Counted from the stretch's first letter, positions 24,238 through 54,778 are shown. The stretch: DNA of 64,000 nt from Syntrophales bacterium (GCA_041946925.1 JBHGBI010000007.1:2900-66899); one strand, 5' to 3'. A program made the numbers and translations. The notes: a model not told the origin generated them from the sequence alone.

Positions 24238-24411
24238 TTGTTTTTCCTCCTGTTTGCCTGATAAAATATTCGGGCTGGAAAAATGAGTTTTTTTAACACA
24301 TAATCCATTAAAAAGCAAAAGGTTTTGCCTCCTCCGGGACGGGAAAGGAGTTGACAAACATGCAAAACCATATATATTCTCTTTTCTCGGTATATTTAAA
24401 AGGAGAGCAGA

Positions 24412-24735
24412 ATGCTTAATATCGGCATGCCCGAACTGATTGTGATTTTGATTGTCGCCATAATCGTGATCGGGCCCAAGAGGTTGCCTGACGTTGCCAA
24501 AGCCGTGGGAAAGGGTATTGCCGAATTTAAAAGAGCCATGAACGAGGTCAAGGAAGAACTGAATTTGGAAAAAATGCAATCCGATGCCGAGGAAATGAAA
24601 AATTCTCTCTTATACAGCAGGAAGCTGGAGGAAGACGAAACACAGGAATCCGGGAAAACGGAAAAAAGTCCTGATAAAAATCCCACCCCCAAAGATCCTT
24701 ATTCAGAGACGGGCTCCACGCCGGCCAAATCCTGA
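24412..24735 (+). CDS. tatA: Twin-arginine translocase TatA/TatB/TatE-family subunit
   Basis: 107 aa. [43 protein letters not shown] is the canonical TM plus amphipathic helix. It is followed by tatC. Confidence 0.85.
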
Positions 24736-33450: not shown

Positions 33451-34788
33451 TTAGCGTTTCTTGTAATAGTGTGCTCCTTGCCAGCTCTTTTTCAAAGCCT
33501 TATTCAGCTTGTACGAAGCATAGATATTCATCGCGTTCTTGATATGGATGGCAGACCTCAGCAGGCGGAGCTGATAGGAAGGAAACGAATATAATCTATG
33601 CTTGATATAATTATCTCCTTCGTAAACCTGGGTTTCATCGATTCCCAGCGGTTGATGAACTACGTAGGAAAAACGATATTTGTCCCAATCTCCAGGGAAA
33701 TTTCGGTAAGTTATCCTTCCCTCCTGCTCCAGTTGTTCCATCAGCCTGGTTCCCGGCAGGGGAGTCAGGATACTGATCTGAACCATGTCAATGCCGGACG
33801 TCAGCAGAAATTCTGCAAGTTCGCTGTAATACTCCGGTGATTCGTAGTCATTTCCAATAATGAAGGCCCCCAAAACTCCTATCCCGAATTTGTGGAATCG
33901 GGCAATAACTGCTTTATAGCTTTCGATTCCGGTTTTCAGGTTAATTCCCTTCTGCATCTGTTTCAGGGTTCCTTTATTGAGCGTTTCAAAACCAATAAAC
34001 ACATAGGTACAGCCGGATCTAGCGGCCGCTTCGATCAAATATTCATCATCCGCCGCATTGATGGAGGTTTGCATCCACCATTTCTTGTTCAGAGAGCGGT
34101 CTATCATGCCCTTAAATAATTCCATGGCCCTTTTTTTACTCTGCAGACTGCTGCCAATCAAGTTATCGTCGACAAAGGCTATAAACCGACCTTTAATGGC
34201 TTCCAATTCGTTGAGAATATCTTCCGGTCTGCGCTGTCGGTAGTCTTTGCCGAGATATTTGGATACTGAACAGAAATTGCAATTGAAGGGACAGCCGCGC
34301 GATGTTTGGACAGAGTTCCAGAAATAATTTTCATGTAATAAATCGCGCCGGGGAGTAATCCGTGTTTGAGAGAGGTCTATTCGATCACCGCGATACTTCG
34401 GCATCAATCGGTTATTCTCAAAATCTTCAATAACCTGTTTCCAGATACCTTCTACTTCTCCTATTACAACAGCGTCCGCGTACTGCAAGACTTCATCAGG
34501 CAGCATCGAAGCGTGAATCCCGCCCATGATCACTTTAGTGCCGTGAGCCTTGTACAGCCTGGCAATCTCATAAGCCCTGTTAATATTGCTGGTGAACGCG
34601 GTGATGCCGACCATATCGGCTTCTTCGAACTCAAAAACACCCATGTTTTCGTCCGCTATTTTGACCTCCCAATGAGAGGGGGTGACAGCGGCTGTGTACG
34701 CCAGGCCCAGAGGTTGAAAAGTGGAAAACCTGCTCAAAAGGTAACCGCTTCTCCTGCCGACAGGATTGATCAATAAAAGTTTTTTCAT
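33451..34788 (-). CDS. B12-binding domain-containing radical SAM protein
   Basis: ATG 34788 (MKKLLLINP...) is preferred over the TTG at 34818. The N-terminal region is a cobalamin-binding-like Rossmann fold (ADMVGITAFTSNINRAYEIARLYKAHGTKVIMGGIHAS). The radical SAM motif is SRGCPFNCNFCSV. Confidence 0.85.
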   Translation of the reverse strand: MKKLLLINPVGRRSGYLLSRFSTFQPLGLAYTAAVTPSHWEVKIADENMGVFEFEEADMVGITAFTSNINRAYEIARLYKAHGTKVIMGGIHASMLPDEVLQYADAVVIGEVEGIWKQVIEDFENNRLMPKYRGDRIDLSQTRITPRRDLLHENYFWNSVQTSRGCPFNCNFCSVSKYLGKDYRQRRPEDILNELEAIKGRFIAFVDDNLIGSSLQSKKRAMELFKGMIDRSLNKKWWMQTSINAADDEYLIEAAARSGCTYVFIGFETLNKGTLKQMQKGINLKTGIESYKAVIARFHKFGIGVLGAFIIGNDYESPEYYSELAEFLLTSGIDMVQISILTPLPGTRLMEQLEQEGRITYRNFPGDWDKYRFSYVVHQPLGIDETQVYEGDNYIKHRLYSFPSYQLRLLRSAIHIKNAMNIYASYKLNKALKKSWQGAHYYKKR

Positions 34789-34845
34789 TTGGATGATCTT
34801 TTCTTTTGAAGTGCGCAAAGAAGCACTTCGGTTTGTAATTCGGAA

Positions 34846-36603: not shown

Positions 36604-37752
36604 TCATGTATATTCTTCATGCCGATCTACGCCGAGGGAGCATATTTTCGTCAGCATATCGCCTCTGACAGCCACACCCAGACCGTGCAGCGGGCCCCGA
36701 GCCCGCTCATTCTCTTTTATCAGCCGCCCGTCTTTGCGAAATTTCCCGAGCAGGAGATTGGAAGGACCTTCGAAATAGGTCAGATTGGACAAAACCATGG
36801 CGAATTGTACGCCCGCCGCGGACAGAACGTCCGCTTCTCCGACATGACTTCCCAGTTGGCACAATACTCCTTTCTGCCGGGCGTAATCTGCGATCTGCTT
36901 GGACCTCAGCAACCCGCCGCATTTCGAAATTTTTATATTCAGGATGTCGCAGCAGCCGCATTCGATCAAATCCCTGGCATCGGACAGACTGTACATGGAT
37001 TCATCGGCTATGACAGAGATTCCCAGAGTCGATCTGACTTTCCTCATTCCTTCACAATCTCCCCTGGGCACAGGCTGCTCGACGGCCGAAATTCTGAAAT
37101 TTTCTATTTTCCTGAGGTTCGAGATGGCCTGGTCCGGCGTCCATTTCCCGTTGGCTTCCACGCGAATATCCATCTCGCTGCCGAACAATTTCCTGATCCA
37201 TGAGACTCGTTGCCGGTTTTCTTCCTCATCCTGCCCCATAAGGACTTTAACGGATTTGAACCTGATATCTTTCAATATGGACAGGCTGCGTTTTATTTTC
37301 TCCGGAGGTAAAAAAGGTATGGGAACCGCATGTGGTATCTCTGTTCTGACGGCCGGACCCAGAAATTCATATATGGGTTTGTGTTGAACCTTGCCGAGCG
37401 CGTCAAGAAGCGCGATATCGATCGCCCCCAGTGCCGAGTGATAGGCTGGAATTCCGTTATCTATACAGCAATGTTCCAGCCTGCGGAGCAGATCATCTAT
37501 ATCCTCAACTCGTTCAATGCATTTCTCCAGGAGCAATCCGGTGAACTCCTTCCGCAGAATCCCGATTACGGATGAACATGTCTCACCCGTCACGTAATTC
37601 CTGGGTGCGCTCTCTCCGTATCCGGAAACGCCGTTGTCGAATTCCACTTCAACCAGCACGGATTCGGCCCTGGATCTGAACGCCTGGGGGGAATGGAAGG
37701 CGAATTTGAGGGGAACATCGCACTGGTAAATATGAATGCCGGTAATCCTCAC
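36604..37752 (-). CDS. Enolase-superfamily enzyme (mandelate racemase/muconate lactonizing / dipeptide-epimerase-like)
   Basis: 382 aa with a capping domain (GVSGYGESAP), a barrel containing FKSVKVLMG, IRVEANGKW, VEQPV, IADES and NIKISKCGG. Substrate specificity cannot be read from the sequence. Confidence 0.8.
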   Translation of the reverse strand: MRITGIHIYQCDVPLKFAFHSPQAFRSRAESVLVEVEFDNGVSGYGESAPRNYVTGETCSSVIGILRKEFTGLLLEKCIERVEDIDDLLRRLEHCCIDNGIPAYHSALGAIDIALLDALGKVQHKPIYEFLGPAVRTEIPHAVPIPFLPPEKIKRSLSILKDIRFKSVKVLMGQDEEENRQRVSWIRKLFGSEMDIRVEANGKWTPDQAISNLRKIENFRISAVEQPVPRGDCEGMRKVRSTLGISVIADESMYSLSDARDLIECGCCDILNIKISKCGGLLRSKQIADYARQKGVLCQLGSHVGEADVLSAAGVQFAMVLSNLTYFEGPSNLLLGKFRKDGRLIKENERARGPLHGLGVAVRGDMLTKICSLGVDRHEEYT

Positions 37753-37809: not shown

Positions 37810-40674
37810 CTAAATGACTTTCGAATGATCCAGTACACGCCGGACGGTTTCGGCCACTTTATTCGTGACGAGCGGTTTTATGATGAGTTCCCGGATCCCG
37901 ATTTCCTGCAAATTCGTCGGGGTTACAGATTCACTGAACCCCGTCGTCAATATTACCGGTATGTCGGGGCGTGCGCGCAGGACCTCGAAAGCCAGCTCCG
38001 TCCCGATCATATTCGGCATGGTCATATCCGTGATGATAAGATCAAAACGGTACGGATCGGAGCGGAATGCTTCCAGGGCCTCGATACTGCTTGTATAGGC
38101 CTCCACTTTGTATCCCAGCCGGCCCAGCATTATCTGCGCGAGCTCCACCAGCGTATCCTCGTCATCGACAAAAAGAATGCATTCCCTGCCGCCGGGAAGA
38201 TTCGCGGCCGGCTCGGGCTTGGAAGCGGCGTCTTTCCCGGAAAATACCGGGAGAAATACGCGAAACGTTGTCCCTTTTCCCACCGAGCTTTGTACCGTGA
38301 TCACTCCCCCGTGGTTCTTAATGATGCCGTGGACGACCGACAGCCCCATGCCGGTCCCCTCGCCGGGTTTCTTGGTTGTGAAGAACGGATCGAATATCCT
38401 TTCGATAATGCCGGGATCGATGCCGTGGCCGGTATCGCTGACAGCAAGTTCTATGTACGTGCCCGGTGCAAGGTCCGGATGGCTTAGGGTATCAGTTGTA
38501 GTCAGCTCCGTACGCGTGAGGCTTATCTTCAATGTGCCTCCCTTTTCACGCATTGCATGCGCGGAATTGGTGCAAAGATTCATGAGGACCTGGTGGATCT
38601 GGGTTGGGTCGGCAAGTACCATCTCGGTATTGGCCCTGATATTCTGAATAATCTGCAGTGAAGACGGGAGGGACGCCCTCAGTAGTTTGACGGCTTCTTT
38701 TATAACCGGGCTGATCCGCAGGGGCTTGAACTCCTGTTCGGTTTGACGGCTGAAAGCAAGTATCTGCTTGACGAGATCCTTCGCGCGGTCTCCTGCTCTC
38801 AGGACCTGGTCCAGGTAGTGCTGGACAGGATCATCCTGAGGAAGATCGCCGACTGCCATTTCTGTATACCCGATGATAGCTCCCAGGATGTTATTGAAAT
38901 CATGAGCAATTCCTCCGGCCAGAGTGCCAATTGCCTCCATTTTCTGTGCCTGCCGCAATTGGATCTCCAGATTGCGTTGTTCCGTCATGTCCTTCATCGT
39001 GCCTACTATTCCGGCTACATTGCCACGCGGATCGAAATTCGGCGCGCCGTTGAAATTGAAGAGTCTTTCAGAGCCGTTCTTATGGAGAATGAATCTCTTG
39101 AAATCCTGAACGGTTTCCCCGTCGCGGATTCTATCAAAGAGTTTCTTGAACAGTTCGGTGTCTTCCTTTCTGACAAAATCGGTGAAGTATTTTCCCATGA
39201 CTTCTTCTTTACGGTGTCCCAGGATTCTCTCCCATGCCGGATTGACATACGTAAACAACCCGTCAAGGTCAACAGTATAGATGATATCCGGGGCGTTCTC
39301 GCTTAGCGACCTGAATCGCTCTTCACTTTCCTGGATTTTCTGATATGACACGGCATTATTGATGCTGATGGCGATCTGGTTGGCAATCCCCGCCAGCAGG
39401 CTGATATCACTCTGGCTGAAACGCCTCTTGGAACGGATGTTGTCCACCATCAATACGCCTATGGAGTCTTTCTCGTATACGATTGGAACGCAGATGAATG
39501 ATTCGGTGCCCATTCTCTTTGCAAAATCCAGACTCCTTTGCGAAAGGTCTTTTTCGATCCCGTGAATGGAATCGACGAGAAAAGGTTTTTGTTTCTTAAA
39601 AGCCACCACCGCCGGACCCCGGGAATCCGGATTATCCAGGCGGAACTCAATACCCTGCAAGTACCCTCTGTATTCTGGGTTATAGCCGTATCCGACCGTG
39701 TAAACGAGACGGGTCTTCTCCCTGTCGGCCAGCATGATCATGCCCCGGTCGAAATCGAGGCGTTTTTCCATGGTTTCCATTATATGATTGAGTAGTTTGT
39801 TCAGATCCAGAATACTGGAAACGGCCTGGCTGATCTCTTTGATCAGCAGGGCATTGTTGTAACTCTTATTCAGCTGGTCCAGAAAATTTTCGGCCGAATT
39901 ACCCTGCAATTCGACATGCAGCGAAAGATCTTTCTTCTCCAGATATTCTGCGTATAGGGCCGTCGCCAGGATCGCAATCGCCGAAATCAGGGATAATCTA
40001 ATCCAGAAGGCGGGAATGAAAAGGGAGAACATTAAAACAAGCAAAGGAAACAGGATGACCAGAAACTTACACAAGCGCCGCCACAGGGAGGATCGGGTTT
40101 CCTGCCAGGAGACGATATACCGGCACTTGTCGCCGCCCCGATGCAGGCACACGGGATGTTCAATTTTGGCAAAATTACTAGTGAACAACTTTGCCAGTGC
40201 CTCCAGGTAGCCTATTCTGTTTTCGCACTGATACGGCTTTTCCTTGACGCCGGGGTAAGGAGTGGAGTTGACTTCAATACTGTTCGAGCCCAGTTTTTCA
40301 ACTTTAAATTTGACATGTCGCGAAATGACCGATGCGATTTTTTCCAACACCCGATACGCCATCAAAGGCGAAAGAAAACCGAAAATATACTGGCGTATAG
40401 CACCGAATGCTCCGGCGGAAACAGCAAATCGCCCGGCTTCCCGGGCGATGTTTGGATTATCAACCGCTTTATTGATTACTTCGTGGAACCGGTCGACGTG
40501 ACGCTGAGTCAGCCAGTGGCCTCCGTCTTCAAGTTCATACGGAGTGATCCCGGCCTCTTCCAGGAGGGATTTCGTATTCACATGTGGGTAATACTTTTCC
40601 AGGTATTCAACATATGTCTTGATGACCCGGCTGCTGTATAACGGCGTATCTTCCATAAAAACCTGCAAGATCAT
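37810..40674 (-). CDS. Hybrid sensor histidine kinase/response regulator: V4R-like N-terminal domain, 2 TM, GAF, PAS, HisKA, HATPase, REC
   Basis: 954 aa.
- The N-terminal ~190 aa end in YQCENRIGYLEALAKLF...HPVCLHRGGDKCRYIVSW, a Cys pattern reminiscent of 4-vinyl-reductase (V4R) ligand-binding domains.
- TM helices follow (FLVILFPLLVLMFSLFIPAFWIRLSLISAIAILATAL).
- Then a GAF domain, a PAS domain, the H-box LAGGIAHDFNNILGAI, an HATPase (DTGHGI...GTGMGLSVV) and a REC domain (ILFVDDE...DLIITDMTMPNM...KP).
- The ATG overlaps the stop of the upstream PilZ gene (ATGA at 40671-40674). Confidence 0.9.
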   Translation of the reverse strand: MILQVFMEDTPLYSSRVIKTYVEYLEKYYPHVNTKSLLEEAGITPYELEDGGHWLTQRHVDRFHEVINKAVDNPNIAREAGRFAVSAGAFGAIRQYIFGFLSPLMAYRVLEKIASVISRHVKFKVEKLGSNSIEVNSTPYPGVKEKPYQCENRIGYLEALAKLFTSNFAKIEHPVCLHRGGDKCRYIVSWQETRSSLWRRLCKFLVILFPLLVLMFSLFIPAFWIRLSLISAIAILATALYAEYLEKKDLSLHVELQGNSAENFLDQLNKSYNNALLIKEISQAVSSILDLNKLLNHIMETMEKRLDFDRGMIMLADREKTRLVYTVGYGYNPEYRGYLQGIEFRLDNPDSRGPAVVAFKKQKPFLVDSIHGIEKDLSQRSLDFAKRMGTESFICVPIVYEKDSIGVLMVDNIRSKRRFSQSDISLLAGIANQIAISINNAVSYQKIQESEERFRSLSENAPDIIYTVDLDGLFTYVNPAWERILGHRKEEVMGKYFTDFVRKEDTELFKKLFDRIRDGETVQDFKRFILHKNGSERLFNFNGAPNFDPRGNVAGIVGTMKDMTEQRNLEIQLRQAQKMEAIGTLAGGIAHDFNNILGAIIGYTEMAVGDLPQDDPVQHYLDQVLRAGDRAKDLVKQILAFSRQTEQEFKPLRISPVIKEAVKLLRASLPSSLQIIQNIRANTEMVLADPTQIHQVLMNLCTNSAHAMREKGGTLKISLTRTELTTTDTLSHPDLAPGTYIELAVSDTGHGIDPGIIERIFDPFFTTKKPGEGTGMGLSVVHGIIKNHGGVITVQSSVGKGTTFRVFLPVFSGKDAASKPEPAANLPGGRECILFVDDEDTLVELAQIMLGRLGYKVEAYTSSIEALEAFRSDPYRFDLIITDMTMPNMIGTELAFEVLRARPDIPVILTTGFSESVTPTNLQEIGIRELIIKPLVTNKVAETVRRVLDHSKVI

Positions 40675-42761
40675 TTGAAACGGACCCTGAATTTCCGGGC
40701 CATGTAATCCATGTAATCATGATCGTAGTCGCGCAGGTTCAATATCCAGAGCTGGTACTGCTTCTCGATATCGATGCCGGCTATGCATCCTTGCGGATAA
40801 ACCAGAATGGGGATTTCCGGTACATCGTATTCATCCGTAAACCGGGCGACCACCCTCATCAGCATATCCCAATCAATTTTATCGGGATTTATCACGAGAA
40901 TCTTAAAACCGTTCAATAATTCCGACAGATTTATTGCCGCTTCCGCATGCTCGACGATCAGAACCGCGCAAATGGCGCCCTGACACTTCAGGGAATAAGC
41001 GCGGCATTGCCTGACGAAGCCCACTTTTTCATAAAGTTCTTTCAGGGGCACGTCAATCATGTCTCTCTGCACAAGCCCCATTGCATCGAGGAGCAACCCA
41101 TTCGACGTATTTCTGTAGAATCGTTCCATTTCCCATAGATCGATGTCGCTGCATTCAGAAAGGACGAAATTTTCCGGGAGAGGCTTTTTCTGGATATCCG
41201 TCCGGCACGGTATATAGGAGAAGAGATCGAGAGAGCATCCCTGCGGGTCATTCAATTCTCTGGCGAAATCGCCGTAAGCACGGTCGGAGAACCTGTTCTG
41301 GGGGCGGTAATAAGTCATGACGTAATCCGTCCTTGCCAACGGAAAACGGGAAATACAATTCAGGTAATGCATGAGCTGTTTCTGCACCTGGAGAGCCGGC
41401 AGTTTACCCTCCAGTGTCTTTGCCGCAAGGTGATGAACCATCCATGTCCTGCTGTATGCCTTGAGCATGGCGACATGAGCGTAAATCCGACCATTTTCCT
41501 CGTATGTAAAATGCCTGGCGACTTCAGGACTGTCCTCATACAATCTGCGGTATATCTCTTTGAAATTCCCCCGGTAGGACTGAATATGCTGGTATTTTTT
41601 CGGATAAATGAAGTTGGTATCGAAAAAGAATTCCCACAGGGCTTCCATGTCCACCTGCTTCGACAAATAGGTATGCGGATCAATAATGTTATTGATTATG
41701 TGTGTCAGCATACTGTGGCTTTGTATGTCCATATCCAGAATCGCAAGCCCCTGCAGGATATCGTTTTCCCGCTCCTCGCGGCGGATTACCTGGGCCGTGC
41801 AGCTGATTCTGGTAACGCCCGCGTAAGTGATCTTAAGATCGGTGATTATCATGCCGGGGACGAGAACGCAGTCATCCTTGCTTTCCCGGACCGAGAACCC
41901 CAGGTTGGAAAGGTCGTGGATTTCGCGCTGGATTTTTTTCTGAGAAAACGGGTGCCTGAAAGAAATGATCGCCGGGGTCGTCAAGACCTGTCTGGGGTTA
42001 CGGAACTTGTTCTTCCTGAAACGGTTGATCTGATGATTCTGCGAAGCCATCACTATTTGCCGCTCTGCTGTTTCTTTTGTCTGCCGTATGATCCGGCATG
42101 TACCTGAAAAGGCAATGTTTCTACCCTGATATAGACGAACCGTAACGTCTTCCTCCGCGTTCAGCCAGGTAAAGGAGCAGGGTGGTTCGGGAGTCACCCT
42201 GAGGCGGAAAGCGCGGGCATTGAAATCCAGCAACTCGCCTTTTGCCGAAAAGCCGCTCTGCATTACCTCCGCAATCACATCATGGCACGCGAAACGGCGG
42301 GTTTGCCGGTGGCTCAGGACGTAACTCTTTTCGGGAAGCTGTACAGTGAGCTTTTCCTTTCCCATCTCCTGCATCACTGCCGGCGCCACAATGATCGAAT
42401 CGGCCTTGGAGATAATCATGTGGAGGAATTGGTACTTATCGATACGAAATTCCTGCAGTCGGGGATTCCGCCACGTGCAAGTCAGATAGTCTCCGTTGCA
42501 CGGCTCGGGGTACGCCTTGACCAGAAAAGTATTCCTGTCTCCGGTGCGGCCGAAATGGGCGAATATGCTGCCTTCGGTAAAGTGAATGTAGTTGAGGGCA
42601 TTTATTAGGGTCTCTTTTCTGATGGCTTTCTGATGAGACGCGGCCTCGGTCTGCGATTCCAGGAGTTCCATCAGGCTGGAGACCTGCAGGACCTCACCTT
42701 CAGCAGACTTGATCGGAACAGGCGCGATGAAAGAAATGACTTTGGAATTTTCCGAGTTCAT
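40671..42761 (-). CDS. Large multi-domain protein with two PilZ-like segments and an uncharacterised C-terminal half
   Basis: ATG 42761 (MNSENSK..., GGAG upstream) is preferred over the longest ORF (42881). PilZ-like signatures: RQTRRF (RxxxR) ... LLDFNARAF (degenerate), and a second segment ending in the canonical DLSNLGFSV (DxSxxG). The C-terminal ~330 aa have no family I can name, though a GNAT-like fold is possible. Confidence 0.6.
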   Translation of the reverse strand: MNSENSKVISFIAPVPIKSAEGEVLQVSSLMELLESQTEAASHQKAIRKETLINALNYIHFTEGSIFAHFGRTGDRNTFLVKAYPEPCNGDYLTCTWRNPRLQEFRIDKYQFLHMIISKADSIIVAPAVMQEMGKEKLTVQLPEKSYVLSHRQTRRFACHDVIAEVMQSGFSAKGELLDFNARAFRLRVTPEPPCSFTWLNAEEDVTVRLYQGRNIAFSGTCRIIRQTKETAERQIVMASQNHQINRFRKNKFRNPRQVLTTPAIISFRHPFSQKKIQREIHDLSNLGFSVRESKDDCVLVPGMIITDLKITYAGVTRISCTAQVIRREERENDILQGLAILDMDIQSHSMLTHIINNIIDPHTYLSKQVDMEALWEFFFDTNFIYPKKYQHIQSYRGNFKEIYRRLYEDSPEVARHFTYEENGRIYAHVAMLKAYSRTWMVHHLAAKTLEGKLPALQVQKQLMHYLNCISRFPLARTDYVMTYYRPQNRFSDRAYGDFARELNDPQGCSLDLFSYIPCRTDIQKKPLPENFVLSECSDIDLWEMERFYRNTSNGLLLDAMGLVQRDMIDVPLKELYEKVGFVRQCRAYSLKCQGAICAVLIVEHAEAAINLSELLNGFKILVINPDKIDWDMLMRVVARFTDEYDVPEIPILVYPQGCIAGIDIEKQYQLWILNLRDYDHDYMDYMARKFRVRFK

Positions 42762-43095
42762 TTTTTGATCTCCGAAGAAAGGGTAAGAGGTTGATTTATC
42801 AGGACCCGGACTACGCGGCACCAATACAGAAGATATCACCTGAATTCCAGAATTGCGGAAAAAAATGATCGGCTCAGGCAATCAAAAGAAAGGTAAATTA
42901 TGAATCCAACGGAAACCGACCTGTTTCGTTCAGCTCAGCAAAATTCTCAGGAGTTCAGGTCATGATCGTCAAGAAGGTTTTTACCTCATGTATGAAGGTC
43001 TATAACAGAAAAGGAGGATCGTTGTCAATGCATTCTCCTTCCAGAAAAAGAGATTGTTTCTCTTCATTATCCGGTTGATTAACGGATATGGACAC

Positions 43096-44976
43096 TCATC
43101 GGGTCCTCTCCTTATTTCTTTTCAGGACAATCATCAGGACGGACATGGCCGCCGGAGTCATGCCTTCTATCCTGGATGCCTGGCCGAGTGAAACGGGCCT
43201 CACTTCAGTGAGCTTCTGGGCCAATTCGCTTGACAGGCCCGGGATTTCGCTGAAATCGAAATCCTGCGGTATAAGTATTTTTTCCATATTCTTGAATTTC
43301 CTGACCTCCGACTCCTGGCGCTTGAGATATCCCTCATACTTGCACTGGATTTCCACCTGTTGCCGTACTGCGGGTGGCAATTTCGACGAGGTATTCTCGA
43401 TTGCTTCTATATCCCCGAAAGTTATCTCGGGCCTCTTCAGAAGCTGATCCAGGGTGAGAGGGGCATCAACAGGACGGGAGCCCTTGCGCTGAAGAAAGGC
43501 GTTAATCTCCGGCTCGGGTCTGAGCCGGGTGACTTTCAATCTCTCCAGTTCGCCTGCGATCATCCGCTGCTTTTCGTGCAGTTCATCAAGCCGCTCGCGG
43601 CTGTGGAGTCCTATTTCGTAGCCCCTTTGCAGGAGACGCAGATCGGCATTGTCTTCCCGGAGCAGGAGTCTGTATTCGGCGCGGGACGTGAACATGCGGT
43701 AAGGTTCTCTTGTCCCGCGTGTGACGAGGTCGTCCACCATGACTCCGATGTAGGCTTCCGAGCGGTCCGGAATGAAAGGCGCCCTTTTCTGCACCTTCAG
43801 TGCCGCGTTGATTCCCGCCAGAAGTCCTTGCGCCGCCGCTTCCTCATAGCCGGATGTTCCGTTGATCTGTCCAGCCAGATATAATCCCTTTATCCTCACC
43901 GTCTCAAGCGTGGGCCTGAGCTGGGTCGGATTAACGAAATCATATTCAATGGCGTAGGCCGGTCTCATAATTTCGGCGTACTCCAGACCGGCAATTGAAT
44001 GAATAATATCCACCTGGATTTCATAGGGGAGGGAATTGCCTGTCCCGCTGGCGTAAATTTCCTCGCTGTCCAGTCCTTCAGGCTCCAGAATGATCTGGTG
44101 GCGTTCCTTATCGGAGAACTTTACCACCTTGTCTTCCAGAGAGGGGCAGTACCTGGCGGAAATTCCCGTGATCTGCCCGCTGTACAGGGGCGAGTGCCGG
44201 ATGTTTTTCCTGACGATGGCATGCGTTCTCAAATTGGTGCGTCCGATAAAGCACGATACCTGCGGCAAGGGAATGTTGCGGGTCAGGAGAGAAAAAGGAC
44301 GGGGAATTTCATCTCCCTTCTGTTCGCTGAATTGCGTAAAGTCGATTGTGGATTTCTTCAGCCTGGCGGGAGTCCCGGTTTTCATCCTCCCCATCTGAAA
44401 ACCGAGTTTCCTCAGATTTTCCGCAAGACCATCAGCCGGAAACTCTCCCGCCCTGCCGGCCGGCATCTTTTTTGTGCCGATATGAATCAGCCCATGAAGA
44501 AATGTCCCCGTCGTGAGTACTACAGCCGGCGCCATGAATTCAACTCCTATATTGTCCCTTACACCGATCGCATTTTCGCCTTCCACCAGAATTTCTTCCA
44601 CAATGGTCTGCTTGAGGTCAATGCGGGGCTCCTTCTCGAGGACGGTTTTCATTAAAAGGCGGTAGCGGTTTTTGTCATTCTGCGTGCGGGTGCTCTGAAC
44701 CGCCGGCCCCTTTTTTGTATTCAGTATACGGAACTGAATAGCCGTCAGATCGGCCGCTTTGCCCATTTCCCCCCCGAGGGCGTCGATCTCTTTGACCAGA
44801 TGTCCCTTCCCCACACCGCCGATTGAAGGGGAACATGGCATATGGGCTATGGTATCGAGATTCATGGAGAAAACCAGGACACTGCATCCCATGCGGGCTG
44901 CAGCGAGGGCGGCTTCGCAACCTGCGTGGCCTGCACCGACGACAATCAAATCATAAGATTTCGAGTAAAGAGACAT
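43096..44976 (-). CDS. mnmG: tRNA uridine 5-carboxymethylaminomethyl modification enzyme MnmG (GidA)
   Basis: ATG 44976 gives MSLYSKSYDLIVVGAGHAGCEAALAAARMG..., the canonical FAD-binding N-terminus. Also present: GQINGTSGYEEAAAQGL and a C-terminal KRPE... Confidence 0.95.
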   Translation of the reverse strand: MSLYSKSYDLIVVGAGHAGCEAALAAARMGCSVLVFSMNLDTIAHMPCSPSIGGVGKGHLVKEIDALGGEMGKAADLTAIQFRILNTKKGPAVQSTRTQNDKNRYRLLMKTVLEKEPRIDLKQTIVEEILVEGENAIGVRDNIGVEFMAPAVVLTTGTFLHGLIHIGTKKMPAGRAGEFPADGLAENLRKLGFQMGRMKTGTPARLKKSTIDFTQFSEQKGDEIPRPFSLLTRNIPLPQVSCFIGRTNLRTHAIVRKNIRHSPLYSGQITGISARYCPSLEDKVVKFSDKERHQIILEPEGLDSEEIYASGTGNSLPYEIQVDIIHSIAGLEYAEIMRPAYAIEYDFVNPTQLRPTLETVRIKGLYLAGQINGTSGYEEAAAQGLLAGINAALKVQKRAPFIPDRSEAYIGVMVDDLVTRGTREPYRMFTSRAEYRLLLREDNADLRLLQRGYEIGLHSRERLDELHEKQRMIAGELERLKVTRLRPEPEINAFLQRKGSRPVDAPLTLDQLLKRPEITFGDIEAIENTSSKLPPAVRQQVEIQCKYEGYLKRQESEVRKFKNMEKILIPQDFDFSEIPGLSSELAQKLTEVRPVSLGQASRIEGMTPAAMSVLMIVLKRNKERTR

Positions 44977-46667: not shown

Positions 46668-47234
46668 ATGAAAAACCAGAAAGAAATGGATTACTTCGCA
46701 GCATTGTACAATGTGGCCAGAGTAGTAAACGCATCCCTGGACACAGCGAAGATACTGGAGGAGATTGTAAGGGTCGTCACAACGACAATGAAAGTGAAGG
46801 CCAGTATTCTCCGGATTCTGGATTCCAGAAAGCAACGCCTGCTGCTCGGCGCCGCATACGGGCTCTCCGAGACCTATATCCGGAAGGGGCCTGTTCTTTT
46901 GAAGGAAAGCGGGCTGGATCAGAAGGCCATAGCCGGTGAAATCATCTGGATAAAAGACGCCCGGACGGATAGGGATTTCCAGTACAAAGATATGGCACGC
47001 GCTGAAGGAATCGAGTCCGTCCTGGTGCTTCCTTTGAAAATCGGCAGGAAAGTGATCGGTGTCCTGCGTGTTTACTCCGATGTGATTCGTGAATTCAATC
47101 GAAAAGAGATCAAGTTCCTCGAAGCGGTTGCCAACCTGAGTGCCATTGCGCTGGACAATGCAAGGTTGTATCAGGCGCTTAAGACCGACTATGATCTCCT
47201 GGCGGCGGCGAAATACCGTATTGACGACAATTGA
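46668..47234 (+). CDS. Stand-alone GAF domain protein
   Basis: 188 aa. The single GAF-like pattern runs [29 protein letters not shown]...[20 protein letters not shown]...[19 protein letters not shown]. There is no output domain. The stop lies 12 nt before the gap start. Confidence 0.75.
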
Positions 47235-47245
47235 TGGAGGGTCCC

Positions 47246-48259
47246 ATGATTCGCCTCGGTATCAATGGTTTTGGCCGGATCGGCCGTCTGGTATTGAAGG
47301 CCGCACTGGAACGCTATCCTGAATCTCTAGAGGTGGCGGCAATAAATGATTTGTTCGATACGGAGACCAATGCCCATCTGTTCAGGTATGATACCAATTA
47401 CGGACGCTTTTGTGGAAATGTAACTGTTGAAAAAGACCGGTTTCTCATCGATGGAAGAGGGATCAAGAGCTTCTGTTTTCGGGACCCTTACTCCATACCC
47501 TGGGATGATGAGGGGATCGATATCGTTATCGAAAGCACGGGACTCTTCACGGAAGGACCGAAAGCGGCGGCTCACATAGAAGCAGGGGCCAAAAAAGTAA
47601 TTATCACCGCCCCGGCCAAGAAAGAAGATATAACCATAGCCATGGGAGTGAACCATACGGCGTATATACCCGAAAGGCATCATATTGTCTCCAACGCCTC
47701 CTGTACTACAAACTGCCTCGCGCCGCCCGCTTATGTCGTGCACCGCGCGTTCGGCATCGAAAAGGGGATGATGGTCACAGTTCACTCTTATACGAATGAC
47801 CAGCGTATTCTCGATCTGCCGCACCGGGATCTGCGGCGCGCAAGAGCGGCTGCACAGAATATTATTCCCACTAGCACGGGGGCGGCCAGGGCACTTGCCC
47901 TGATTATCCCGGATTTGGCTGGTCGGTTCGACGGTTATGCGCTCAGGGTGCCCACCCCGACTGTATCCATCCTGGATTTTACAGTTCAGCTCCGGAAGAA
48001 TGTCGATACGGGAAAACTCCGGGAAACTCTCAGGGAAGCAGCCGAAAACGAACTGAAGGGAATCATGGCGTGCGAGGAAGCGCCTCTCGTCTCCATGGAC
48101 TTCAAAGGCGACACCCACTCATCCATCGTTGATCTTGAATTCACGCAGGTCCTGCAGAATAACATGGCCAAGGTCGTGGCGTGGTACGATAATGAATGGG
48201 GTTATTCCTGTCGGGTGGCCGATCTGGCAAATTACATGGCCGAACGAATGAAGTCCTGA
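47246..48259 (+). CDS. gap: Type I glyceraldehyde-3-phosphate dehydrogenase
   Basis: ATG 47246 (GGAGGG upstream) gives [14 protein letters not shown]. The catalytic [12 protein letters not shown] is present, along with the C-terminal WYDNEWGYS. Confidence 0.95.
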
Positions 48260-49246: not shown

Positions 49247-52200
49247 CTATTTATTTTCAAGGTGCTTTCTCAGGTAACGCGCCGTGTGGGAATGCTTTGT
49301 CTGGCACAGAATATTCTCCGGTGTGCCCTGTGCGACAACATGTCCCCCGAGTTTTCCCCCTTCCGGGCCGAGATCGATGATGTAATCCGCTTCTTTGATC
49401 ACGGCCAGATTGTGCTCGATCACGACAATAGTCGTGCCCCGGTCCACAAGCCTGTGAAGAATCGTCAGGAGCTTCTCTATGTCGGCCATATGAAGACCTG
49501 TCGTAGGTTCGTCCAGAACATAAAAAGTTTTTTCCGCCGAAGCGCAGGAGAGCTCACGGGCAAGCTTGATGCGCTGTGCCTCTCCTCCGGACAAGGAGGG
49601 GCTTGACTGCCCGAGAGAGAGGTAATCGAGTCCGATATCGACGAGCAACTGGATACCTTCTCTGATCTTTGGGATCGCGCAAAAAAATTCCAGACTTTCA
49701 CCGAACGTCATCCCGAGGACTTCATCGATGGATTTTCCGTGATAGCGGATATCCAGGGTCTCTTCATTGTACCTGCGCCCGCCGCATTGATCGCAGGTAA
49801 TATAGACATCGGGCAGAAACTCCATTTCGACCCTGATTTTGCCCTGGCCTGCGCAGGCCTCACATCTGCCCCCTTCTACATTGAATGAGAAGCGCGACGG
49901 GGTATAGCCTCTGGTCCTTGCCTCGGGCACCTGGGCGAATATGCGCCTGATTTCATCGAATAGCCCGGTATACGTAGCGGGGGTTGAGCGGGGCGTTCGT
50001 CCTATGGGCGAATGATCTATTTCTATTGCCCTTGAAAGATGCTGCCATCCGCTTATGGATTGGAAACCGCCTGCATTGCCGGCTGTCCCTGACAGGCGTG
50101 CTTTGATTGCCCGGTAAATGACCTCTTTAACAAGAGTCGATTTGCCCGACCCGCTGACGCCTGTCACACAGGTGAGAGTCCCGAGGGGTATCCTGACGTC
50201 GATATTTTTCAAGTTGAATTTTTTTGCGCCCGTAACTTCAATCCATTCTCCATTCATAGCCGGACGCACGCGACGAGCAACTCCGCTTTCACGGCCGCCG
50301 TTGAGAAATATACCTGTAACAGAGTCCGGACACGCCCTGATCTGCTCCAGGCTTCCTTGCGCGACCACTCTGCCGCCGTTAGGCCCGGCACCCGGACCCA
50401 GGTCAACGATATAATCCGCCGACCGTATTGTCTCCTCATCGTGTTCAACGACCAGTATCGAATTCCCTTTATTCTGTAATTCCCGCAGGGTCGACAGGAG
50501 TCTTTGGTTATCCCTGGGGTGAAGACCGATGGTCGGCTCATCCAGGACATAACAAATGCCCCTCATGTTGGATCCAAGCTGAGCGGCAAGTCTTATCCTC
50601 TGGGCTTCTCCACCTGAAAGGGTATCGCCGGAGCGGTCCAGCGCTATATAACCCAGACCCACCTGTTTCAGGAAACGGAGGCGTGGAAGGAGTTCACTCA
50701 TGACGGCGCCGGCGACCGCTCTCTCCCTGCCGGTAAATTTCATGGAAGAGAGCAGGCGTTCAGCCTCTGTTACTGAGCATGAAACTAGTTCGCCTATCCC
50801 CCATTCTCTGACCTTGACGGCAAGAGCTTCCTCTCTGAGGCGTTTCCCATTACAGGCTGGACAGACTGCGTCTCCCATAAAATCCCGCAGCCCCTCTCTG
50901 AGAGTATCGGGAAGTCCCCTCATCATCGGAATGATCCCGCGGAACCCCGCGGCGCCGAAAAGCAGTTTCCGCATGCCCTCTTTTCCCAGAAAAGAGAGCG
51001 GCATGTCCGGGGTGATCCCGAATTCGCGGCATATCTCGCCGATAACTCCGGATTTAAATTTATTAAGAGCACTGTATGCAAACGGTGCCAAAGCCCCCTC
51101 CGACAAACTTTTCCCCGGTTCTGGAATTATGAGCTCGGGAATGAAATCGACCAGACTGCCCATCCCCTGGCATTGAGGACAGGCGCCCTGCCGGCTATTG
51201 AAAGAAAAAAGCCGGGGATCGAGTTCTTCGAAACTCCGTCGGCATCTGGGACAATAAGACCTCTCGCTGTAGGTTTTACGTTTACCAGCTTCATCCATAA
51301 CCCTGATAGTTCCCTTGCCGATCTGAAAGGCCTTCTCGACCGATCCCGCCAGTTCCTCCCGGGATTGTTTTCCGATCCGCATTTCTCTCACGACGATATC
51401 CATGTCGTGTTCCCGGAAGCGCTCCAGCTCAGGGATGGGATCGAGTGTCACATAGCGCCCGTCAATGACGGCGTGGGAAAATCCGAGTCGTTTCATTTTT
51501 CTCATAAGATCCTTGTGATACCCTTTCCTTCCGAAGACCACGGGGGCCAGCACGAGGAGCTTTCCGTTTTTAAAGCTTTCCATGATTTCTTCCACGATGA
51601 TCTCCGGCGAGAAAGACTCGATCGACTCCTGACATCCGGGACAATGCTGAACGCCTATTTTGCTGTAGAGCAGCCTGAGATAATGGTATACCTCTGTCAG
51701 TGTGGCCACGGTGGATCGCTTCCCGGACAGGCTTGTCCTCTGCTCGATGGCTACTGTGGGGGGGATGCCCGAGATGTCGTCGATATCCGGACGCTCCATG
51801 ATCTTCAGGTACTGCCTGATATATGTCGGCAGGCACTCCAGATATCGCCTCTGTCCCTCGGCAAAGAGGATATCAAAGGCAAGAGTCGATTTTCCTGAGC
51901 CGCTTACCCCGGTGATGGCCACCATCTTTCCTCTGGGTATGGAAAGCGAAATATCCTTCAGATTGTGCTCCCTGGCGCCTGTGACGGTTATCTTGTTGTC
52001 CGCGGCCCTGCGGCCGTGTGCAGCATCCTGGAGCCTGGTTTTTGCGATTTGCTCCGTTCCTTTCAGATGATGCCTGAGCCACTGCCCGGTCCAGGATGAT
52101 TCTTCCCCGGCGATTTCTTCCGGAGTCCCTGCGGCAACTACACGTCCGCCCTCCTCGCCTCCTTCCGGCCCGAGGTCAATGACGTAATCCGCGCACTTGA

Positions 52201-54778
52201 TCATCTCGGGGTTGTGCTCGATGAAGACGATACTGTTTCCTTCGCAAACGAGTTTCTGGAAGGCCTTAATCAGGATGGAAATGTCATGCGCATGGAGTCC
52301 GACAGTGGGCTCGTCAAAAATCAAAAGGGCTCGTCCTATCTTCCTGAGGCTGATGTGGCGCGCGAGTTTGAGTCTCTGAGCTTCTCCGCCCGACAGCGTA
52401 TTGACGGGCTGTCCCAGCCTCAGATAACCGAGTCCGACTGAAACGAGGACCTGCAGGGGAGAGACGATTCCGGGACAGTCCGCGAAAAAAGACACGGCCT
52501 CCTCCACTGTCATCGCAAGGACTTCTGCAATGTTTTTTCCCCTGCATCGGACTTCGAGGATTTCATCCGTGAATCTCTTGCCGCCGCAGACTGGACAGAG
52601 GACGAATACATCGGACAGGAACTGCATCTCGATCTTTTCGAATCCTTCGCCCTGGCATGCCTCGCACCGGCCTCCCCGGGTGTTGAAAGAAAAAAAGGAT
52701 GCCTTGTAGCCCTTTTGTTCCGCAAGGGGCTGCGATGCAAAAAGAGCACGGATCGGATCGTAAGCTTTCAAGTATGTGACCGGCGTCGCCCTCGGGGTCT
52801 TTCCGACCGGCTTCTGATCCACGAGGATCGCTTCGTCGATGTTTTCCACTCCCTGAATTTCCAAGAAACTGCCGGGTTTTTCTTCCGTTTCTCCCTTGAG
52901 TCTTTTCAATCCCCTGTACAGGATATCGATGCCGAGTGTACTCTTGCCCGATCCGGATACCCCGGTGACTGCGACCAGACATCCCAGAGGGATATCTACA
53001 TCGATCTTTTTCAGATTGTGCTCGCCCGCTCCCCGGATGGAAATGAAATTCACCGGCCTCCTTCTCTGTTGCGGTACAGGAATGCTGCGCGTGCCGCTCA
53101 GATATTGACCCGTCAGCGATGACGGATGTTTCAGGATTTGATCCAGTGTGCCGCTGCAGATGATCTCCCCTCCTTTTTCTCCCGCAGCCGGCCCCATATC
53201 GATGATATGGTCCGCACCCTTGAGTATCTCCGGATCATGCTCAACGACCACGACCGTATTTCCCTGATCACGAAGATCGAGGAGAGTTCCAAGCAGACGG
53301 CCACTGTCGCGGGGGTGCAATCCTATTGTAGGTTCATCGAGAATGTAGAGCGTATCGACGAGAGATGACCCTAGCGCTTTGGTGAGACTTACCCGCTCGA
53401 TCTCCCCTCCAGAAAGAGTTCTGGATTGGCGGTCGAGAGTCAAATATCCCAATCCCACATCAAGCAGATACCGCAATCTTCTTCTGATTTCGTCGATGAG
53501 AATCCCCGCCGCCTCGTCAAGAGAATTGTGGGAAAGCCGCTCAAAAAACTTCGATGTATCGGCGATACTGAGACGATAGACGTCGGCGATATTTTTTCCG
53601 AGAATACGCCACAGCAGGACTTCGTTTTTGAAACGGCTTCCCGAACATTCGGGGCAGATTACATAGCCTCGGTACCTTGATAGGAACACCCGCACGTGGA
53701 GCTTGTATCTCCTGCTTTCAAGCCATCGGAAGAAACCGCGGATTCCATAAAAATTGTCGTCTCCATCTATGATCAGATTTTGATGTTTTTCATCGAGATC
53801 TTTGAAAGGAACGTGAACCGGAATACCCTTCCTGCGGCAGAAGGTGATGAGGTCTTCCATTTCCAGCCTGGCCGCTCCCGACCATGGCCTTATTGCCCCG
53901 TCGCGGATGGATTTGTTTTTATCCGGGATTACGAGATCAAAGTCGATATCGATCGTCCGCCCGAAGCCCCGGCACATTTCACATGCACCCGCCGGTGAAT
54001 TGAACGAGAAGAAGTTGGCAGAAGGCGCTCTGTAAGTGATCCCGCAGTAAGGGCATTCAAGATTCGAGCTGAAACGAAGGGTTTCTCCGGTGGGAAGGTG
54101 TACATCGACCTTCCCTTTCCCCCTCTTCATGGCCAGTTCAATCGAATCAATGACCCGTTTGCGTTCCGCCCTTTTGAAATGAAACCTGTCGGCAACGACA
54201 TCCCACCTCCCTTCATCCGCTTCCTCAACGGGAATGAGCCGCCCTTCTTTCCATATCCGATAAAATCCGGATCGCTGAAGAGATTCGCGTCTTTCTTCCG
54301 GCATTCCGGTGCATTCCACAGGGAAAGTCAAAACGAGGGGGGTCTTTTCTTCAAGGGCCAGAAGCTTCCCGAACACGTCCTGGGCGGTGTCCTTTCGGAC
54401 CGTCCTGCCGCAGTTGCCGCACTCGAGCACGGCTACGCGGGCATAGAGAAGCTTCATGTAATCGTTGATCTCGGTAATCGTCCCGACGGTGGACCTGGAA
54501 GTCTTGACTGCGTCTCCCTGGGCTATCGCCAATGCAGGGGGGATCCCTTTTATCCGCCCGACGTTGGGTCTGTCCATGCGCTCCATGAACTGGCGGGCAT
54601 AGGGAGAGAACGTCTCCACATAACGTCTCTGCCCCTCGGCATAAAGAACATCGAATGCGAGGGATGATTTTCCGGCACCGCTCACGCCTGTAATTGTGAC
54701 AAGCTTATTCAAGGGAATCTCGATATCGAAACCCTTGAGATTGTTCTGTCTGACATTCTTGAGAACAATGGAAGTCAT
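49247..54778 (-). CDS. Tandem-duplicated UvrA-family ABC ATPase (two complete UvrA units in one 1843-aa polypeptide)
   Basis: There are four Walker A sites (GVSGAGKSS, GVSGSGKST x3) and four LSGGE signatures. Two UvrA-type N-termini are present: NNLKGFDIEIPLNKLVTITGVSGAGKSSLAFDVLYAEGQRRYVE at residue ~10, and HNLKDISLSIPRGKMVAITGVSGSGKSTLAFDILFAEGQRRYLE at residue ~920. Each unit carries the CxxC zinc modules. Confidence 0.9.
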   Translation of the reverse strand: MTSIVLKNVRQNNLKGFDIEIPLNKLVTITGVSGAGKSSLAFDVLYAEGQRRYVETFSPYARQFMERMDRPNVGRIKGIPPALAIAQGDAVKTSRSTVGTITEINDYMKLLYARVAVLECGNCGRTVRKDTAQDVFGKLLALEEKTPLVLTFPVECTGMPEERRESLQRSGFYRIWKEGRLIPVEEADEGRWDVVADRFHFKRAERKRVIDSIELAMKRGKGKVDVHLPTGETLRFSSNLECPYCGITYRAPSANFFSFNSPAGACEMCRGFGRTIDIDFDLVIPDKNKSIRDGAIRPWSGAARLEMEDLITFCRRKGIPVHVPFKDLDEKHQNLIIDGDDNFYGIRGFFRWLESRRYKLHVRVFLSRYRGYVICPECSGSRFKNEVLLWRILGKNIADVYRLSIADTSKFFERLSHNSLDEAAGILIDEIRRRLRYLLDVGLGYLTLDRQSRTLSGGEIERVSLTKALGSSLVDTLYILDEPTIGLHPRDSGRLLGTLLDLRDQGNTVVVVEHDPEILKGADHIIDMGPAAGEKGGEIICSGTLDQILKHPSSLTGQYLSGTRSIPVPQQRRRPVNFISIRGAGEHNLKKIDVDIPLGCLVAVTGVSGSGKSTLGIDILYRGLKRLKGETEEKPGSFLEIQGVENIDEAILVDQKPVGKTPRATPVTYLKAYDPIRALFASQPLAEQKGYKASFFSFNTRGGRCEACQGEGFEKIEMQFLSDVFVLCPVCGGKRFTDEILEVRCRGKNIAEVLAMTVEEAVSFFADCPGIVSPLQVLVSVGLGYLRLGQPVNTLSGGEAQRLKLARHISLRKIGRALLIFDEPTVGLHAHDISILIKAFQKLVCEGNSIVFIEHNPEMIKCADYVIDLGPEGGEEGGRVVAAGTPEEIAGEESSWTGQWLRHHLKGTEQIAKTRLQDAAHGRRAADNKITVTGAREHNLKDISLSIPRGKMVAITGVSGSGKSTLAFDILFAEGQRRYLECLPTYIRQYLKIMERPDIDDISGIPPTVAIEQRTSLSGKRSTVATLTEVYHYLRLLYSKIGVQHCPGCQESIESFSPEIIVEEIMESFKNGKLLVLAPVVFGRKGYHKDLMRKMKRLGFSHAVIDGRYVTLDPIPELERFREHDMDIVVREMRIGKQSREELAGSVEKAFQIGKGTIRVMDEAGKRKTYSERSYCPRCRRSFEELDPRLFSFNSRQGACPQCQGMGSLVDFIPELIIPEPGKSLSEGALAPFAYSALNKFKSGVIGEICREFGITPDMPLSFLGKEGMRKLLFGAAGFRGIIPMMRGLPDTLREGLRDFMGDAVCPACNGKRLREEALAVKVREWGIGELVSCSVTEAERLLSSMKFTGRERAVAGAVMSELLPRLRFLKQVGLGYIALDRSGDTLSGGEAQRIRLAAQLGSNMRGICYVLDEPTIGLHPRDNQRLLSTLRELQNKGNSILVVEHDEETIRSADYIVDLGPGAGPNGGRVVAQGSLEQIRACPDSVTGIFLNGGRESGVARRVRPAMNGEWIEVTGAKKFNLKNIDVRIPLGTLTCVTGVSGSGKSTLVKEVIYRAIKARLSGTAGNAGGFQSISGWQHLSRAIEIDHSPIGRTPRSTPATYTGLFDEIRRIFAQVPEARTRGYTPSRFSFNVEGGRCEACAGQGKIRVEMEFLPDVYITCDQCGGRRYNEETLDIRYHGKSIDEVLGMTFGESLEFFCAIPKIREGIQLLVDIGLDYLSLGQSSPSLSGGEAQRIKLARELSCASAEKTFYVLDEPTTGLHMADIEKLLTILHRLVDRGTTIVVIEHNLAVIKEADYIIDLGPEGGKLGGHVVAQGTPENILCQTKHSHTARYLRKHLENK

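Follow-up and report, generated by a model that had tools for sequence, protein, structure and literature searches.

PilZ domains are receptors of cyclic dimeric guanosine monophosphate (c-di-GMP). To our knowledge, c-di-GMP effectors with enzymatic outputs are rare, and PixB is essentially the sole PilZ-GNAT protein that has been studied. This protein of Myxococcus xanthus (MXAN_2604, PilZ-PilZ-GNAT) binds c-di-GMP even though both PilZ domains lack the Ser of the motif, and its GNAT domain is essential (PMC8316039). A second kind of system is represented by free H-NOX proteins, which bind directly to neighbouring kinases or c-di-GMP enzymes and thereby regulate them (PMC7108781). Here, we describe a gene pair in a window of 64,000 nucleotides (nt) of a Syntrophales bacterium (GCA_041946925.1, JBHGBI010000007.1:2900-66899); the window is the whole stretch of DNA analysed, and its numbering is used for all positions. 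Gene A encodes a protein with PilZ domains and a predicted tandem-GNAT output, gene B a hybrid histidine kinase with an H-NOX-like sensor domain. An initial annotation made from the sequence had located two open reading frames (ORFs) between 37810 and 42881, and both were found there, on the minus strand. With a probability of roughly 55%, we infer that the pair is a conserved, cytoplasmic and c-di-GMP-responsive signalling module in which gene A binds c-di-GMP and is coupled to the sensor side of its partner.

By architecture, PixB is the closest characterised analogue of gene A. As judged by its published description, it likewise has two PilZ domains followed by an output of GNAT fold. However, PixB has a single GNAT domain, assigned to the family by its authors, whereas the tandem GNAT of gene A is not seen by Pfam. 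The arginines of its PilZ motifs lie about 210 residues apart (R121, R331), compared to about 100 in gene A, and no H-NOX-like/GAF partner was reported for PixB, whereas the gene A family has a fixed one. The N-terminal half of gene A resembles YcgR, PlzA, MrkH and VCA0042 in its fold, with the Arg motif located in the linker between barrels, but these proteins end after the PilZ barrel and bind a target (motor, DNA), whereas gene A has three predicted barrels and an enzyme-like output of 330 amino acids. In the literature, no description of the PilZ-tandem-GNAT family or of its pairing with H-NOX-like/GAF proteins was found.

PilZ barrels and a predicted tandem-GNAT fold in gene A

The length of the gene A product had been given as about 697-736 amino acids in the initial annotation. 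The upper value corresponds to the longest ORF (40671-42881), which begins with a TTG, but translation probably starts from the ATG at 42761. A GGAG sits 8 nt upstream of this codon, and the resulting protein of 696 amino acids (40671-42761, minus strand) has the same length as a 100%-identical NCBI record (P0001, "hypothetical protein" of a Syntrophales metagenome-assembled genome). A structure was predicted using AlphaFold2 with 36 relatives (mean predicted local distance difference test [pLDDT] 78; predicted template modelling score [pTM] 0.60). In the order of the chain, the model shows a helical hairpin with a small barrel, PilZ barrel 1, PilZ barrel 2 and two alpha/beta domains.

Two PilZ-like segments had been proposed, and both are supported, the second by Pfam and the two together by the AlphaFold barrels and Foldseek, so that profile and structure agree on PilZ folds. 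In detail, Pfam PilZ (PF07238) matches residues 254-356 with 31.7 bits (gathering threshold 22.5; E = 2e-7), i.e., most of PilZ domain 2 (residues ~249-344; 41730-42017). PilZ domain 1 (residues ~145-240; 42042-42329), recognised by its invariant arginines and the model barrel, is seen by Pfam only as a weak second stretch at a permissive cut-off. The Pfam PilZ model matches 36 of 36 family members examined, and a scan of gene A with NCBIfam gave no match. When the N-terminal half was compared with the PDB using Foldseek, PlzA, MrkH, VCA0042/PlzD, YcgR and MotI were retrieved (E = 1e-6 to 1e-4). From the secondary structure of the model (DSSP) and these matches, we take the N-terminal helices and small beta-barrel (residues ~28-141; 42339-42680) to be a PilZN/YcgR-N-like domain.

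Motif residues were counted in 192 relatives, using the numbering of the 696-amino-acid form. In PilZ domain 1, RQTRR followed by a degenerate second motif had been noted, which corresponds to R152-QTR-R156 and D179-F-N-A-R-A184. Both arginines of this RxxxR motif are present in 192/192 relatives, and the second motif is DFSxxG in about 80% of the family (S in 153/192, G in 154/192), with N and A at these positions in the window. In PilZ domain 2, the canonical DLSNLG (D283-L-S-N-L-G288; S in 190/192, G in 192/192) is preceded by R254-NP-R257, the Arg motif called imperfect before; its RxxR spacing is a property of the whole family (190/192 and 188/192 for the two arginines). Comparing PilZ domain 1 with PilZ domain 2, and the N-terminal barrel with the PilZ domains, hhalign detected no significant similarity; the best internal-repeat result (E = 0.027) aligned the two DxSxxG regions in register. 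Based on the model and these motifs, gene A is predicted to be a c-di-GMP receptor composed of a PilZN-like barrel and two PilZ domains.

The C-terminal ~330 residues had been left unassigned, and Pfam, NCBIfam and sequence searches of the PDB indeed give no match to them. Structure prediction combined with Foldseek points to a tandem GNAT by fold, in line with the GNAT-like fold that had been suggested for examination. GNAT-like domain 1 (residues ~364-520; 41202-41672) shows the canonical order b1-a1-a2-b2-b3-b4-a3-b5-a4-b6 in DSSP, and GNAT-like domain 2 (residues ~532-691; 40689-41168) has the same order but for the helix between b5 and b6, which is missing from the prediction. More than 10 tandem-GNAT entries of the PDB were matched with a probability of 1.0 (E = 6e-8 to 1e-4). 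The top match is the glucosamine N-acetyltransferase of Clostridium acetobutylicum (5kf1, E = 6e-8), and others are Legionella VipF (6wqb/7wx7), clavulanate CBG (2wpw), MAB_4324 (7q3a), the Eis-like 3n7z and a histidine acetyltransferase (9emp). Tandem-GNAT enzymes such as 5kf1, VipF, 2wpw, 7q3a and 3n7z share with gene A two GNAT halves per chain and represent the best structural match for residues ~364-691. They differ in that their identity to gene A is 8-12%, without detectable sequence similarity, in that gene A carries its partial coenzyme A (CoA) loop in the first half rather than in the second, and in that gene A is fused to PilZ domains.

The b4-a3 loop of the first half reads [K/R]-R-x-G-F in the family (G in 187/192), a partial Q/R-x-x-G-x-G/A motif, and K-L-P-A-L-Q in the window. 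In addition, the strands taken as b4 and b5, the location of GNAT active sites, carry an invariant His and an invariant Tyr. Domain 2 contains an invariant N-L-S-E-L-L-N segment, and hhalign found no mutual similarity between the two halves. We conclude that the C-terminal ~330 amino acids of gene A are predicted to form a sequence-cryptic tandem-GNAT (double acyltransferase) fold.

The partner kinase and the conservation of the pair

Gene B (37810-40674, minus strand) encodes 954 amino acids counted from its first ATG. Its assignment as a hybrid kinase was confirmed by Pfam, which detected HisKA (residues 583-646, E = 1.3e-11) and HATPase_c (689-810, E = 2.8e-25) in the kinase core (38245-38928) and a receiver (833-944; 37843-38178; Response_reg, E = 2.2e-17); the H-box AHDFNN and the receiver motif DMTMP are present in the translation. 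Upstream of the core, a GAF domain (residues 290-438; 39361-39807; E = 2.6e-17) and a PAS domain (452-565; 38980-39321; PAS_4, E = 2.9e-20) were found. Residues ~202-245 (39940-40071) form the only hydrophobic stretch according to Kyte-Doolittle analysis, with two predicted transmembrane helices and no periplasmic domain. Since this sole stretch fits a two-helix hairpin, the N-terminal domain and the remainder of the protein are probably cytoplasmic. Gene B is therefore predicted to be a membrane-anchored multi-sensor hybrid kinase.

The N-terminal domain (residues 7-200; 40075-40656) had been called V4R-like, based on a C...C...GGDKC pattern. The pattern itself is present (C150, C176 and C184, together with H173 and H178), but membership in the V4R family was rejected, as Pfam V4R (PF02830) scores 15.9 bits against a threshold of 31 (E = 0.014) and covers residues 149-188 only. 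The earlier assignment holds at the level of the H-NOX/V4R superfamily, and the fold is closer to H-NOX. An AlphaFold2 model of the domain (pLDDT 86.6, pTM 0.84) matched S. oneidensis H-NOX (4u99) in Foldseek with template modelling (TM) scores of 0.76/0.78, a root-mean-square deviation (rmsd) of 3.0 Å over 192 columns and E = 6.5e-8, and dozens of entries for Tt and Nostoc H-NOX and for soluble guanylate cyclase beta1 also match over the full length. Weaker matches were obtained for VirS-N and the sensor domains of MopR and DmpR. These V4R/XylR-N (MopR, DmpR) and VirS-N (PF12625) domains belong to the same structural superfamily, but of the 44 partners, only 2 pass E = 1e-5 for VirS-N. The zinc site of MopR, which we take to consist of C155, E178, C181 and C189, has the same spacing as C150, H173, C176 and C184 of gene B.

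In a profile search of PDB sequences, the segment EHPxCxHxGGxxC was aligned with H161, C164 and C172 of S. oneidensis, and the Cys3His site C150, H173, C176 and C184 reproduces the H-NOX zinc site Cys139/His161/Cys164/Cys172, whose ligands were taken from PMC7108781. Across 44 homologous partners, C150, C176 and H178 do not vary, whereas H173 and C184 are each retained in at least 90%. An hhalign comparison to Tt H-NOX (E = 1.9e-4, 150 columns, alignment probability 48%) places the proximal H102 (H103 in S. oneidensis) at a variable column of Ala or Ser, in a helix that contains no conserved His. The YxSxR propionate motif is without counterpart and aligns with S-T-P...E, an alignment that is moderately secure at a probability of only 48%. 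According to PMC7108781, all of the 598 H-NOX sequences analysed there have the proximal His. Identity with a canonical heme H-NOX was rejected and heme binding is unlikely, because both the proximal His and YxSxR are missing. From model and alignment, we regard the domain as a heme-less member of the H-NOX/V4R superfamily that has the H-NOX fold and a putative structural, redox-sensitive zinc site. A precedent for such a site is the heme-free H-NOX of Vibrio cholerae, which senses oxidants via zinc (PMC7108781). Compared to the H-NOX/HnoK and H-NOX/HaCE systems of Shewanella and Vibrio, the domain shares the fold (TM 0.76), a nearly equal Cys-His-Cys-Cys spacing and the association with a kinase or c-di-GMP enzyme. 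However, it is fused to its output, is without proximal His and YxSxR, and has a PilZ-GNAT protein as neighbour.

A word-index search with gene A returned at least 692 relatives of ~698 amino acids and 44-49% identity, with Deltaproteobacteria, Desulfobacteraceae, Desulfobacterales, Thermodesulfobacteriota or Syntrophales as their source names. When the tandem-GNAT part was used in an exhaustive profile search, 985 clusters (50% identity) were obtained at E<=1e-3 and 334 at E<=1e-30, nearly all of them 660-720 amino acids long with the GNAT part at ~350-690; full-length family members filled this search, and distant relatives such as PixB lie outside its view. The mean column identity of the family alignment is 67%.

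For linkage, the 80 best of 290 loci encoding a gene A relative were taken from a one-genome-per-species collection. An H-NOX-like gene lies downstream on the same strand in 55 of the 67 loci with at least 600 bp of downstream sequence, within 150 bp in 32 of these 55, and where 2 kb or more of downstream sequence was available, the partner is present in 47 of 54 loci. Conservation of the pair, initially proposed as a check, is hence strong, and the pair recurs in genomes of sulfate reducers and syntrophs. Further, mnmG is near the pair in 1 locus and an enolase-family gene in 10. As the surrounding genes are otherwise not conserved, the linkage is more than inherited synteny. What is conserved is, however, not the kinase: all 44 full-length partners possess the H-NOX-like domain, the hairpin and the GAF domain, while the outputs are interchangeable (hybrid kinase 26, class III nucleotide cyclase 12, HD-GYP 5). 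Two partner kinases have an Hpt domain, and HD-GYP domains occur in 14 of the 80 loci.

The initial annotation had found no Hpt or response regulator (RR) nearby and regarded the pathway as undefined. In the window, none is encoded within ~15 kb, and the one other receiver domain (~8650-9017) is ~29 kb away. In relatives, an RR-HD-GYP gene directly follows the kinase (L029, L032, L070, L079 and L081), which indicates that the missing phosphorelay output is a c-di-GMP phosphodiesterase in those loci. As the same sensor part drives a cyclase, an HD-GYP, or a kinase followed by RR-HD-GYP, feedback of the module on c-di-GMP levels, or cross-talk from them, is probable.

Fusions were also found. 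In P0267 (893 amino acids), the PilZ-tandem-GNAT unit continues without a break into HisKA-HATPase, whose HisKA is of the subtype also present in gene B, and in the metagenomic P0204 and P0247 (~1210 amino acids) NERD and a Ser/Thr kinase precede a complete PilZ-tandem-GNAT unit. Judged by their domain order, these fusions together tie the unit to protein kinases.

A possible mechanism and its alternatives

In the mechanism we propose, gene A would bind c-di-GMP via its arginine-rich linkers and its PilZ barrels, which would re-orient the barrels against the tandem GNAT and change the activity or docking of the latter. The tandem GNAT would then acylate or bind the H-NOX-like/GAF region on the partner's sensor side, and the autophosphorylation and phosphorelay of a partner kinase would be tuned. 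With HD-GYP outputs, a feedback loop on c-di-GMP would be closed, and cyclase outputs would allow cross-talk to cyclic AMP (cAMP) and cyclic GMP (cGMP). In the window, the module may feed a phosphorelay whose terminal regulator is encoded elsewhere. The adaptor role initially attributed to gene A is only one possibility, as the output domain looks like an acyltransferase in the model; within the module model, a catalytic and a purely adaptor role of the GNAT part are about equally open.

Several observations weigh against the module model, and the explanations they suggest and the model itself are not mutually exclusive. Among the 192 relatives, none diverges more than the gene A of the window: at 164 columns with a conservation of 90% or more, it carries 29 changes where the median is 5, including S to N and G to A in PilZ domain 1 and G to A in the putative P-loop; in PilZ domain 2, RxxR replaces RxxxR across the whole family. 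With DFNARA instead of DFSxxG, its PilZ motifs might have decayed, leaving a c-di-GMP-blind protein that is constitutive or answers another signal. This is unlikely: the arginines of RxxxR in PilZ domain 1 and DxSxxG in PilZ domain 2 are intact, as is the ORF, which keeps 135 of the 164 conserved positions, and because PixB binds c-di-GMP without the motif Ser, the deviations seen here do not exclude binding. Regarding the output, superposition on tandem GNATs is loose (TM-scores only 0.4-0.5, rmsd 8-9 Å), so that the tandem-GNAT call rests on the consistency of the matches and the topology. Moreover, no Pfam GNAT model matches (Acetyltransf_1 is touched in 1 of 36 members, E = 0.19), and the glycine-rich CoA loop, partial in GNAT domain 1, is absent from domain 2. 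It is possible, if doubtful, that gene A is a non-catalytic adaptor, with a pseudo-enzyme tandem GNAT as docking or allosteric surface that switches the partner (H-NOX-like domain, GAF or DHp) on c-di-GMP binding, by analogy with free H-NOX acting on HnoK or YcgR braking the flagellar motor. The column identity of 67% would suit a protein-protein interface, and in P0267 the PilZ-GNAT unit occupies the usual place of a sensor domain before HisKA; as a single, N-terminally truncated metagenomic protein, P0267 weighs little. On the other hand, the invariant His and Tyr on b4/b5 and the conserved Gly of the b4-a3 loop resemble an active site, the GNAT domain is indispensable in the analogue PixB, and many active GNATs depart from the pyrophosphate-loop motif.

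Objections to the coupling itself come from the loci. Gene linkage is no proof of physical interaction, 7 of the 54 loci with at least 2 kb downstream have no partner (four of these, L021, L023, L035 and L041, share another synteny group), and L081 has an H-NOX-like/GAF kinase without a nearby PilZ gene. The neighbours might be independent, gene A being a PixB-like c-di-GMP-regulated protein acetyltransferase with targets elsewhere and the adjacency reflecting co-regulation only; PixB affects motility and development, not an adjacent kinase, and some genomes have extra orphan copies (L011, L014). We consider this quite improbable, since the pair persists at 41-49% protein identity in otherwise changing neighbourhoods, the spacing is often below 25 nt, and kinase fusions exist. 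Least probable is a c-di-GMP-gated synthase that N-acylates a small metabolite, a "tertiary messenger" read by the H-NOX/V4R-like pocket or GAF domain of the partner and tailored by neighbouring MLE-type racemase/epimerase, S-adenosylmethionine (SAM) methyltransferase and B12-radical SAM enzymes, with a lineage-dependent output. Such a relay would agree with a conserved ligand-binding side and variable outputs of the partner, with the small hydrophobic ligands bound by the H-NOX/V4R-fold relatives MopR/DmpR and VirS, and with the recurrence of small-molecule enzymes by the pair (methyltransferase in 32 loci, MR_MLE in 11, B12-radical SAM in 14), and MLE-subgroup relatives include N-acyl-amino-acid racemases. 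However, none of the neighbours occurs in every locus, the convergent methyltransferase gene is not co-transcribed with the pair and is absent from the window, and no substrate can be inferred. The fusions of gene A to kinase cores without an H-NOX-like domain argue for direct protein-level control instead.

Locus layout, neighbourhood and significance

Translational coupling via ATGA had been proposed for the pair. The overlap at 40671-40674 exists in the sequence, but the start codon within it is not backed by homologues: 44 homologous partners start at the equivalent of the second ATG of gene B (40656; MEDTPLYSSR in the window, MxDxPLYNSR in homologues). This codon is the probable start by comparison of the sequences, giving 948 amino acids and, as a consequence, a probable 14-nt spacer between gene A and gene B. 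In related loci, the gap between both genes is typically -10 to +40 nt, and an overlap of start and stop does not appear as a conserved feature in these sequences. Both genes are tightly linked and almost certainly co-transcribed. Upstream of gene A, mnmG is separated from it by a 330-bp leader. In the region 42600-43200, neither a c-di-GMP nor another riboswitch was detected, and the sole match was a small RNA at chance level. A scan for promoters and terminators was uninformative, with fewer promoter-like sites than in shuffled sequences and terminator-like sites within ~1.4 standard deviations of the shuffle mean. Scanning both proteins for defence systems using PADLOC gave no match.

A gene of the MLE subgroup of the enolase superfamily (36604-37752, minus strand; Pfam MR_MLE_C/N) begins 57 nt downstream of gene B on the same strand and may be the third member of the unit. 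Among NCBIfam models, the nearest to it are muconate cycloisomerase, Ala-Glu epimerase, o-succinylbenzoate synthase and N-acetyl-D-Glu racemase, all below their cut-offs. Another 10 loci have a gene of this family downstream of the partner, and in 5 cases the distance to the partner's end is at most ~80 nt.

Other genes recur near the pair in relatives. A class I SAM methyltransferase of ~273 amino acids is convergent behind the partner and abuts or overlaps its 3' end in ~24 loci, with any output (e.g., L004 5304-6125, L026 12318-13199, L044 7006-7827); the same family occurs in 32 loci in all (within L003-L078), but not in the window. B12-binding radical SAM genes are near the pair in 14 loci and in the window at 33451-34818 (minus strand); they lie between the PilZ gene and the partner in L032 (2829-4283), L053 (4140-5606), L059 (6994-8454) and L064 (10033-11493). 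A MerR-HTH/DUF4004-like gene (~270 amino acids) precedes the PilZ gene on the same strand by a median of ~50 bp in 11 loci (L012, L014, L017, L022, L027, L033, L036, L037, L040, L044, L054) and is absent from the window. A ParA/MinD-type P-loop ATPase of 436 amino acids (L003 10824-12134, L005 10703-12013) separates the PilZ gene from a hybrid kinase and a cyclase, both of them H-NOX-like/GAF partners arranged in tandem. One gene A relative is located on a short contig (L001, QMWS01000145.1, 3.1 kb) binned as "Thermoprotei archaeon"; as the distribution is otherwise bacterial, this contig is probably mis-binned.

Three further genes were observed in the window. An ORF of 1843 amino acids (49247-54778, minus strand) contains two sets of UvrA_inter and UvrA_DNA-bind plus ABC ATPase and is apparently a double-length tandem UvrA-like protein. 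A stand-alone GAF protein of 188 amino acids (46668-47234, plus strand) has a stop codon overlapping the start of the ORF 47231-48259, which looks glyceraldehyde-3-phosphate dehydrogenase-like from sequence. A histone-deacetylase-family protein of 467 amino acids (23176-24579, minus strand; Hist_deacetyl, E = 2e-103) is encoded ~16 kb from the GNAT-fold gene.

Relative to known kinds of systems, the pair is a variant of a PilZ effector with GNAT output and of H-NOX-type sensor signalling, which is widespread and whose function is predicted. An H-NOX fold without heme ligands but with a redox-sensitive zinc site fits the emerging idea of heme-independent H-NOX signalling. If the synthase explanation were true, the pair would constitute a new second-messenger relay and provide the first ligand class for heme-less H-NOX-like domains. 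The family comprises ~1,000 clusters (50% identity) and 290 loci, is highly conserved, occurs mostly in anaerobes of the Desulfobacterota/Syntrophales type and has no characterised member. Its fixed partnership with H-NOX-like/GAF proteins suggests how c-di-GMP is wired to phosphorelays, to cAMP/cGMP and to its own degradation in these organisms.

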